From: Candidatus Bathyarchaeota archaeon
Lineage (GTDB): Archaea > Thermoproteota > Bathyarchaeia > Bathyarchaeales > Bathyarchaeaceae
Direction: 5' to 3'
DNA length: 23,890 bases
NCBI GenBank assembly: GCA_963697165.1
Contig: CAVOMX010000004.1
Coordinates: 1-23,890, forward strand
Part shown: piece after piece, positions 14,867 through 15,709 of the stretch
Layout of the letters: each line of letters opens with the position of its first letter
Position numbering within the stretch: the first letter of the stretch is position 1
Notes under the pieces: model-generated
What the model was told of the DNA's origin: nothing
The model's database searches: none
The model's input: only the letters and a program-made list of their open reading frames with translations
Made by a program: the position numbers and the translations under genes

Positions 14867-15064
14867 CTAGACTGCTTTCACAAATGCTTGTTTCTTTGAT
14901 GCCCACTGAGTCACAGGTTTCCTGAAGGTTTCAATGAGTCCCACGTTTTTGAGGTTAGGAATTGCACCTTTCATGTTCTTTGGAACTTCTGAAATAATTA
15001 GTTCGCCGCGTTCTTTGATGTAGTCGTAGACTTCCTGTTCTAGGATACTTATTTTTTTAGCCAA
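14867..15064 (-). CDS. Small basic protein, probable winged-helix DNA-binding
   Basis: LEQEVYDYIKERGE...GAIPNLKNVGLIETF; GGAGGG SD before TTG; candidate TATA TTTAAA at 15117-15122. Confidence 0.7.
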   Translation of the reverse strand: MAKKISILEQEVYDYIKERGELIISEVPKNMKGAIPNLKNVGLIETFRKPVTQWASKKQAFVKAV

Positions 15065-15154
15065 ACTTTTCCCTCCTGTTTAGTTCGTGGAAATGCACGC
15101 GAGACTATGACCCCTGTTTAAATGCATAATTCAATTTTTGAATAATGTTTAGGG

Positions 15155-15360
15155 ACGGCAAGGTTATACGGGTTTGCGTGCTTCTACACCGTAAAGCAGC
15201 TTTCTGGTTCGGTGTTGAAAGGGTAACACGCTCGCTTTCTGTTTCAGTCAGCACGCCGCTAGCAAATGTTTCTGTGGCAGCTGGCCCAAGCCAACCGTTT
15301 CTGTTTCAAGCTTAGCCGCCAACTCTACTTCCGTGACCAGCAGCTCTCGTTCCTTGCCGC
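15155..15360 (-). ncRNA. Unclassified ~205-nt structured RNA with two RNase P S-domain-like modules
   Basis: 9-bp terminal stem GCGGCAAGG/CCUUGCCGU, several internal helices with G-U pairs only on the minus strand, repeated UGAAACAGAAA, TATAA 24-28 nt upstream, GC-richer than its flanks, no credible ORF. Confidence 0.75.
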
Positions 15361-15709
15361 AATAACATTGTTGTGTTGCTTGCTTATAGCGATTCTGGAC
15401 AAATAATTTAGCGGGTAAACTAAAAAATTTAGATTCTTTAATTATTTTAAAGTCAAAACTTTATTTGTTCATAACTGCAATACAATAAATGACATGAAAT
15501 TTCGGAGATTATCTTTAGAAGTCTCAACTCAAAATTGGTAATTTCACGATTGATATATAAGCTATCTTTAAACACGTTGCTTTTAACATGTATTCTGCAT
15601 CACTGTTTCTTGGAGGATTAAATTTTAATTCCCAAACCCATTATGTAGAAATCAACTTATCCTAATCTTATGCATTATAGTAAGAGTTCTCAAATCTTCT
15701 CAAAGCTCG

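Follow-up and report, generated by a model that had tools for sequence, protein, structure and literature searches.

Introduction

To our knowledge, few stand-alone, highly structured archaeal RNAs without an assigned function have been described, and a locus that appears to encode one raises three questions: whether the RNA exists, which fold it keeps and what it could do. The locus considered here lies in a stretch of 23,890 nucleotides (the window) from Candidatus Bathyarchaeota archaeon, namely contig CAVOMX010000004.1 of assembly GCA_963697165.1, referred to below as contig C4 of the host genome G000, which is 81% complete. A reading of the sequence alone (the original prediction) had proposed that the minus strand between 15360 and 15155 encodes an unclassified RNA with two tandem RNase P-like double T-loop modules. 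The analysis described here indicates a different architecture: the locus belongs to an undescribed, expressed noncoding RNA (ncRNA) family, known from one set of sediment archaea and with a well-supported fold, in which the proposed modules are not conserved. We hold it to be highly probable that this is a real, stand-alone ncRNA family. It has no Rfam homologue and falls within the broad kind of orphan ornate ncRNAs, no new mechanism being shown; the RNA is small enough to be transcribed, probed and imaged in days, and its natural variants, together with a decayed copy, are built-in controls.

An expressed RNA with its own promoter

The gene sits in a 645-bp intergenic gap flanked by a gene for a PAP2-like membrane protein and a 65-aa open reading frame (ORF), and forms a GC island (53% versus 28% upstream). 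The motifs that had been noted lie at or near their given positions: the 9-bp terminal stem and the TATAA box are both present (Table 1), and the 11-mer UGAAACAGAAA does occur twice in this copy, at 15308-15298 and 15246-15236. The RNA gene codes for nothing: stop codons are present in all six frames in 32 of the 33 homologues described below, and the conservation of a reading frame, which had been named as an observation to look for, failed to appear. The assignment to the minus strand agrees with the minimum free energy (MFE), which is lower on that strand than on the plus strand in 29/33 homologues.

Evidence of transcription came from sequencing runs. At least half of the query words were contained in 20 of the 24 runs listed, 18 of which are recorded as RNA, across 10 studies; four related runs had next to none. 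In each of the four runs examined, from four studies, the contigs nearly identical to the window lay within 15152-15360, with ends at 15152-15159 and 15345-15360; outside these limits there were only short or divergent pieces among the 27 (of 41) that were listed. In this library chemistry template switching marks the 5' end, and a contig of run X4 that stops at 15360, followed by CCC and adapter, is read as such a mark; contigs of run X3 stop at 15156-15157 against adapter. The depth in X4 was 3280 in the bin of the RNA and 0 in the flanking upstream bins, a missing contig cover over flanking genes being no proof that these are silent. The transcript-end check in metatranscriptomes that had been proposed is in line with these bounds, and a discrete RNA of about 206 nt, made from its own promoter, is strongly supported.

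Homologues carry a TATA-like box about 28-32 nt before the first helix (P1), and an upstream block of about 60-70 bp with CTAA..TTAG-like palindromes travels with the RNA. A profile of this block, built from 31 homologues with both host loci included in training, retrieved the host loci at E 9e-11 and 6e-7, the next best match in the genome being at 1.2. Judged by their sequence, the palindromes are candidate sites for a regulator; a pattern of palindrome plus TATA had 8 scattered matches in the genome, which outline no clear regulon.

Some minor observations concern the same region. Two weak matches to the promoter profile (G000:C12:202282-202317 and C14:106565-106600) fall in segments, each at least 200 bases long, that are almost the same on both host contigs, apparently a repeat or a duplicated segment. 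On the plus strand, 15397-15471 (21% GC), which shares bases both with the promoter block and with an imperfect inverted repeat (15385-15406/15461-15482), matches the Rfam tRNA model with 32 bits (cut-off 29) only when 451 nt are searched; it is absent from the ARAGORN output and from the whole-window Rfam scan, and is most likely an AT-rich artefact. In one low-depth X4 contig (depth 4 versus about 3000), 15274 is joined back to 15156 through a single additional base; this is probably a library chimera and possibly a rare partial circle. A joint between 15360 and 15155 was not found among the contig pieces listed, their ends being bounded by adapter. An archaeal RNA circularised through a bulge-helix-bulge motif was rejected: this copy has none, and the formal matches in 11/33 homologues seem to be a continuous stem shifted in register by wobble pairs.

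A family of homologues in one order

Folding of the single sequence only modestly beats shuffles (z = -2.07; 7/200 shuffles equally good), and the MFE fold of this copy agrees with neither the originally predicted model nor the family model; homologues were therefore needed, and their collection from Bathyarchaeia had also been suggested. The 39 aligned matches comprised 35 distinct sequences, of which 33 full-length ones were kept after two truncated ones had been removed; identity ranges from 60 to 100%, and the fold is kept throughout.

BLAST found 8 copies in 6/25 genomes of the genus, and the covariance model 11 copies in 8/25 (4/13 of the near-complete ones), the host having two and G008 three. 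Further carriers are G136 and G144, from two other families, and G393 and G428 (two pattern matches), so that genome copies are known from 12 genomes belonging to three families of one Bathyarchaeia order, at 1-3 per genome. Samples of the class and of the phylum gave 3/150 and 1/150 (the host only), respectively, and added none beyond the order; an order-wide pattern search gave 5/401, a lower bound since its minimum gap was too long and known copies of the genus were missed. A pattern scan across GTDB returned 28 matches, 12 of them confirmed and all in records titled Bathyarchaeia/Bathyarchaeota or Thermoproteota, the 16 bacterial ones being rejected, and a metagenome scan returned 28, of which 24 were confirmed. 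True full-length matches scored above 140 bits, with no intermediate scores; a weak match in G026 (17 bits, inside an ORF) was rejected. In viral contigs the strict pattern had no match and the loose one 63, none confirmed by the model, and no match was found in annotated phages and plasmids.

The second host copy (L181:6365-6573; G000:C17:82364-82572, minus strand) shares 164/204 aligned bases with the present one; a thermosome gene follows some 530 bases downstream. Another copy (L030) is found in a record titled Candidatus Bathyarchaeum tardum, a lineage which we take to have been grown in enrichment.

One fold across the family

From the first 8 sequences, RNAalifold recovered the nested architecture without guidance. 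The 33 sequences were then aligned with MAFFT, which is blind to structure, and a model of 58 pairs was tested: 95.4% of the 1886 cells are paired, and 24 pairs have changes on both sides. This was reached by 0/500 shuffles, and slid registers gave 26-41%. As relatives inflate the counts of double changes, two tree-aware tests were run. For the whole structure, 21-24 co-changes fall on the same branch, against 5.8 +/- 2.1 in a rate-matched null (maximum 16 in 4000 draws); about 17 of them preserve a standard pair, and they are spread over P1, P3a, P5, P6, P7 and P8. The proposed covariation check thus came out positively for the structure as a whole and negatively for single pairs (best E about 1.1). 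These results strongly support that the family keeps one fold.

According to the well-supported model, P1 would close the ends, a lower junction would join P1, P2 and P8, and an upper junction P3, P4 and P7, with P4, P5 and P6 (96%, 95% and 95% paired) forming one long arm capped by a UUNG tetraloop. Even without its kissing loop, this fold is predicted at -51.1 kcal/mol, against -28.9 for the fold proposed originally. The CGG/CCG pairs of P3b are nearly invariant, which places them beyond covariation testing. The strands GCGUGU(U) and (A)GCACGC, predicted to form a stem that closes a third domain, are indeed complementary, and each lies instead in the loop of its own hairpin, P7 and P8, respectively; the further helix ACACCG/CGGUGU is 73% paired across the 33 homologues. 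Judged by their complementarity, the two loops could kiss through 6 bp.

If kissing took place between molecules, the GCGUGU/GCACGC loops would build RNA-only rings or cages, in which paralogues, their loops being identical, could co-assemble, and RNA-only assemblies would be extended to archaea. A precedent is described in 10.1101/2024.12.08.627333 for ROOL and GOLLD, whose kissing loops build such assemblies; the six loop-loop pairs are invariant in 33 sequences down to about 60% identity, and there are 2-3 diverged copies per genome. However, an intramolecular contact appears feasible (about 14 bp in P2-P3 against about 17 bp in P7-kiss-P8, by our own estimate), ROOL and GOLLD are far larger RNAs, and the invariance of the loops is partly imposed by the search patterns, so that oligomerisation seems to us improbable.

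As a separate observation, the P4 and P6 stems and the bases following them (15246-15254 and 15278-15286, minus strand) are alike, with 14-15 nt repeats spaced by 33-35 nt at three loci, which suggests that the arm arose through internal duplication.

Junction strands: a probable loop E rather than paired T-loops

In PMC3664808 the double T-loop is defined as AGNNA...UGNNA with six near-invariant residues. Neither of the tandem modules matches this definition across the family: the motifs are not conserved, and the strands that the original prediction paired are not opposite one another in the family fold. The 5' strand of the first module reads GGAAG or GGAAU (AGNNA in 0/33) and its 3' strand has UGNNA in 15/33; both motifs of the second occur in 10/33, its AGNNA strand in 11/33. 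The CUG/CAG closing pairs, 60% and 79% paired in the two modules against 95.4% for the family model, clash with P3-P7 of the covarying fold; the inner hairpins, whose positions we had to guess as none had been named, are 80% and 89% paired. This copy alone has the 11-mer in duplicate; two homologues have it once and the other 30 lack it.

What is conserved instead are the strands at the upper junction (Table 1), and 46 columns of the alignment are invariant, many of them unpaired and clustered at the junctions. In PMC1865062 the sarcin-ricin/loop E motif is given as AGUA/GAA. The new RNA resembles it in having AGUA opposite GAA, beside a helix, at the base of a long arm; it differs by one extra variable base next to AGUA, off the textbook motif, and by the context of a three-way junction. 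In the outer junction, UGNNA is present in 30/33, facing AGNNA in 0/33 (the 5' strand being GGAAG, with its CGG able to pair with an invariant CC(G)). Taken at the level of sequence, the invariant strands would fit a loop E better than T-loop modules. We consider a loop E the probable, though by no means secure, identity of this junction; a single T-loop that docks against the opposite strand appears unlikely, and both an interdigitated pair of T-loops and some other arrangement decidedly so.

Inside the arm, a register closer to RNase P (AGNNA-NN-helix-UGNNA), which the original prediction had not named, flanks P6. The present copy is among the 8/33 that have both motifs, the UGNNA strand alone occurs in 14/33, and in one clade the strands form a plain helix. 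The register leaves the binding of tRNA elbows possible, at a lowered probability. An RNA with one elbow platform on the P4-P6 arm, the triplet that follows the loop-E strand perhaps acting as a T-box-like specifier, could account for this register, which recurs in several clades, for the strand UGAAA-NN before P7, which matches the RNase P J12/11 strand UGAAAC, and for an invariant G and A at 15272-15271. It is contradicted by the lack of a conserved six-residue core in either register; by one member (L021) in which the would-be fifth T-loop base changes from G to U; by the first base of the triplet, an invariant A; and by the neighbourhood, with no aminoacyl-tRNA synthetase family among 88 neighbour ORFs and no tRNA gene in 29 loci. 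We regard tRNA binding as improbable. A more elaborate version, to which we give still less credit, would be a free-standing archaeal tRNA-binding RNA in which the P4-P6 arm acts like T-box Stem I or the RNase P specificity domain without mRNA or catalytic core. One end of the arm would carry the loop-E junction and, in the AGNNA/UGNNA subfamilies, an elbow platform would sit some 15 bp from it; the invariant kissing loops might link several copies to form a multivalent sponge. PMC4810234 and PMC4919913 name three RNA contexts for interdigitated T-loops; if true, tRNA binding here would add a fourth context for elbow recognition, and a free one.

Table 1. Features at and around the ncRNA gene; positions are those of the window.
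Feature	Positions	Strand	Evidence or remarks
ncRNA gene, 206 nt, new family	15155..15360	minus	Model R2, 212 bits (copy belongs to the training set); RNA contigs as in the text
TATA box, 28 nt ahead of first P1 base	15384..15388	minus	Sequence; similar box and spacing in homologues
Pair of imperfect palindromes, CTAA-N4/5-TT(A/T)G, spaced by 21 bp and preceding TATA	15400..15432	minus	Repeat D5; upstream-block profile
P1 5' strand (partner 15163-15155)	15352..15360	minus	96% paired; change on both sides in 5/9 pairs
P2, P3a, P3b 5' strands (partners 15201-15198, 15208-15206, 15212-15210)	15331..15345	minus	P2 88%, P3 94% paired
Junction strand AAGUA-N	15325..15330	minus	Faces GAAA 15245-15242; AGUA 32/33, GAA 33/33; candidate loop E
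Long nested arm	15246..15324	minus	P4 15324-15318/15252-15246; P5 15316-15310/15263-15258; purine-rich internal loops; P6 15297-15290/15285-15278; UUNG tetraloop
Inner RNase P-like register AGNNA-NN-helix-UGNNA	15275..15302	minus	AGAAA 15302-15298, UGCCA 15279-15275; both motifs 8/33 (12/33 if GGNNA allowed); not family-wide
Junction strand UGAAA-NN	15240..15246	minus	GAAA 33/33, U 30/33, final two bases variable; single T-loop candidate or loop-E partner
P7 hairpin	15217..15239	minus	Loop GCGUGU 15231-15226; 94.5% paired; double changes in 2/5 pairs
P8 hairpin	15167..15193	minus	Loop GCACGC 15181-15176; 98.8% paired; double changes in 4/5 pairs
Downstream 65-aa ORF, not part of the system	14867..15064	minus	Adjoins the RNA only here and at L132 and L140

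Comparison with known RNAs

A scan of the whole window with Rfam 15 gave no match over the RNA, and the same models found nothing on the RNA at 12 homologous loci, in accordance with the statement that it belongs to no described family. At a loose threshold, over a 451-nt stretch, two lncRNA models overlapped it with 12.2 and 4 bits, far below their cut-offs, and were set aside as chance matches. A survey of the literature on Bathyarchaeia ncRNAs found no matching family, although the supplements of large candidate-RNA surveys (PMC10690425, PMC8040213) could hold the motif.

On a different contig the host encodes a canonical RNase P RNA of its own (207.7 bits), the presence of which the original prediction had proposed to check; this RNase P RNA shows the same layout as the inner register, AGAAA-CG...UGAAAC. 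Like the RNase P specificity domain, the new RNA has a long helix followed by a UGAAA(C) strand, with AC(A/G)GAA ahead of that strand, and, in 8/33 members, the inner register. The differences are more numerous: covariance models give no match in either direction, R1 and R2 (those of the new family) missing the host RNase P locus; the catalytic-domain strands (GAGGAA.UCC and, at the 3' side, ACA.AA..GG..UUA) are absent both from this sequence and from the 33-sequence consensus; the 5' junction strand is GGAAG, with CGG complementary to the invariant CCG; and the kissing-loop hairpins have no counterpart in that domain. Membership in the RNase P RNAs was rejected, and descent from them finds no support in these models.

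With T-box Stem I, as presented in PMC4919913 and PMC4810234, the RNA shares a long irregular arm and purine-rich loops. It departs from it in ending in a terminal tetraloop, not in an apical T-loop, in having no antiterminator or T-box match and no downstream synthetase genes, and in leaving the platform residues unconserved. Stem I also has a loop-E motif at its base, next to the specifier. A T-box leader was rejected for lack of an Rfam match and because the neighbours are unrelated and often convergent. The lysine riboswitch combines a loop E with a kissing loop, and the new RNA resembles it in its putative 6-bp loop-loop helix, without any match to the Rfam Lysine model and without being a leader.

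The closest parallels in kind are raiA, OLE, ROOL and GOLLD, which are likewise described in 10.1101/2024.12.08.627333 as own transcription units with many helices, kissing loops, no assigned function and a patchy spread. The new RNA is, unlike them, archaeal and 206 nt long, with no phage or tRNA-cluster link found, and it does not match their Rfam models.

A trans-acting ribozyme or a small-ligand-binding RNA, with a pseudoknotted core holding the active site, would explain the many invariant unpaired positions at the junctions. The lack of similarity to any Rfam ribozyme or riboswitch speaks against it, as do the ends of the RNA, which correspond to the promoter-predicted start and to P1 with no sign of self-cleavage; we consider this improbable.

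Neighbourhood and evolution

The ORF downstream of the RNA had been labelled a winged helix-turn-helix gene, a label that finds no Pfam support, the only hit being DUF7709 at E 0.01. Its family is small, unnamed and found in 19/25 genomes of the genus at 1-3 copies each, and at 28 other homologue loci in the genus it lies without an intact RNA within 1.5 kb. Neighbour genes recur only among close loci; among the 88 neighbour ORFs of 27 loci no family recurs, and neither transposase nor integrase families are represented. In a genome without the RNA, one locus (L177; G001:C22:2303-2920) carries a 459-aa reverse transcriptase ORF.

At no fewer than 10 loci (L048, L029, L051, L053, L037, L038, L144, L122, L180, L145), the closest downstream ORF of substantial size is convergent with the RNA, which supports the view, already advanced, of an independent transcript rather than a leader. 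A cis-regulatory, riboswitch-like leader would fit the co-oriented gene that follows closely at some loci, such as this one and L030, but, besides the convergent genes, the downstream genes have no common function, the 5' and 3' ends pair in P1 and the contigs end there; this explanation is largely refuted and very improbable. The other element of the original proposal, a structured, stand-alone RNA of no known class whose minus-strand transcript begins at the stem, is equally borne out.

At an orthologous site beside a DEAD-box helicase gene, G004 retains a decayed copy (52-column match, score 50 versus a null maximum of 30-34 in 500 shuffles), convincing only by the pairwise test against its closest intact relative, the model giving 3.6 bits and nhmmer E 0.049. 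The same site in G017 has a marginal 21-base 3' remnant (2/500 shuffles as high). The TATAA of the remnant may serve the downstream ORF, as had been proposed. Given the decayed orthologous copy and the presence in 8/25 genomes of the genus, the RNA is accessory and dispensable.

Such a pattern invites the idea of a selfish or mobile unit, that is, a cassette of promoter and RNA copied to new sites and decaying there, the RNA serving its own spread. The site differs in almost every lineage, genomes hold several subfamilies, the distribution is scattered over three families, an upstream block of about 70 bp co-travels and decayed copies exist; yet the 88 neighbour ORFs include no transposase, integrase or reverse transcriptase family, 5 loci share no terminal repeats or target duplications, the host copies have diverged enough to indicate no recent burst, and no viral or plasmid copy was found. 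We therefore give the cassette little credence. An origin from a miniature inverted-repeat transposable element or an insertion sequence was rejected on the same two grounds, the lack of a linked transposase and of shared ends.

A possible function

With coding, cis-regulation, antisense action, RNase P membership and a classical mobile element each disfavoured, a trans function based on shape remains. Our tentative preference is for an accessory, trans-acting RNA that serves as a protein-binding scaffold or decoy; we rank it ahead of tRNA binding and oligomerisation, which are equally probable, then of a cassette and a ribozyme or sensor, again equally probable, and lastly of a leader; a scaffold or decoy, tRNA binding and oligomerisation are not mutually exclusive. 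In such a scaffold or decoy, the P2-P3 stack would join the two three-way junctions, and P7 and P8, leaving the junctions, would lock through the 6-bp kissing loop into a compact core. The loop-E-like motif of the upper junction might set the angle of the long P4-P6 arm, and the shape and invariant unpaired purines, rather than base-pairing to a target, would offer the surface for a protein. Large amounts of the RNA would be made whenever a regulator acting on the palindromes ahead of the gene permits.

Several points weigh against this interpretation or the structure that underlies it. The mechanism was reached largely by exclusion, and only three partner guesses were tried: TROVE was found in 0/5 genomes, a reverse transcriptase only in a genome lacking the RNA, and no TnpB-type protein over the cut-off. 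In tree-aware, all-against-all covariation no single pair is significant (none below E 1 in the first run, best E 1.1-1.2 with the second null, in both alignments), because the sequence set is too small and too related. The six loop-loop pairs and P3b never vary and so rest on complementarity and conservation; moreover, GCGUGU was demanded by the patterns that found the metagenome copies, GCACGC not being demanded by the GTDB-wide and metagenome scans. The expression data, finally, consist of contigs, the runs having been selected for containing the gene and having no DNA control, and give its presence and likely ends, neither its strand nor its true level.

As for antisense action, no match among those listed was better than E 1.2, and no complementarity is shared among 29 tRNAs.

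A short motif of the RNA deserves separate mention. The sequence GGUUCG belongs to the T-arm of tRNAs, and CGAACC, in the 3' strand of P3 (15206-15211, minus strand), is complementary to it. It was not the dominant tRNA match in the complementarity comparison, and it varies among homologues and pairs within the RNA itself.
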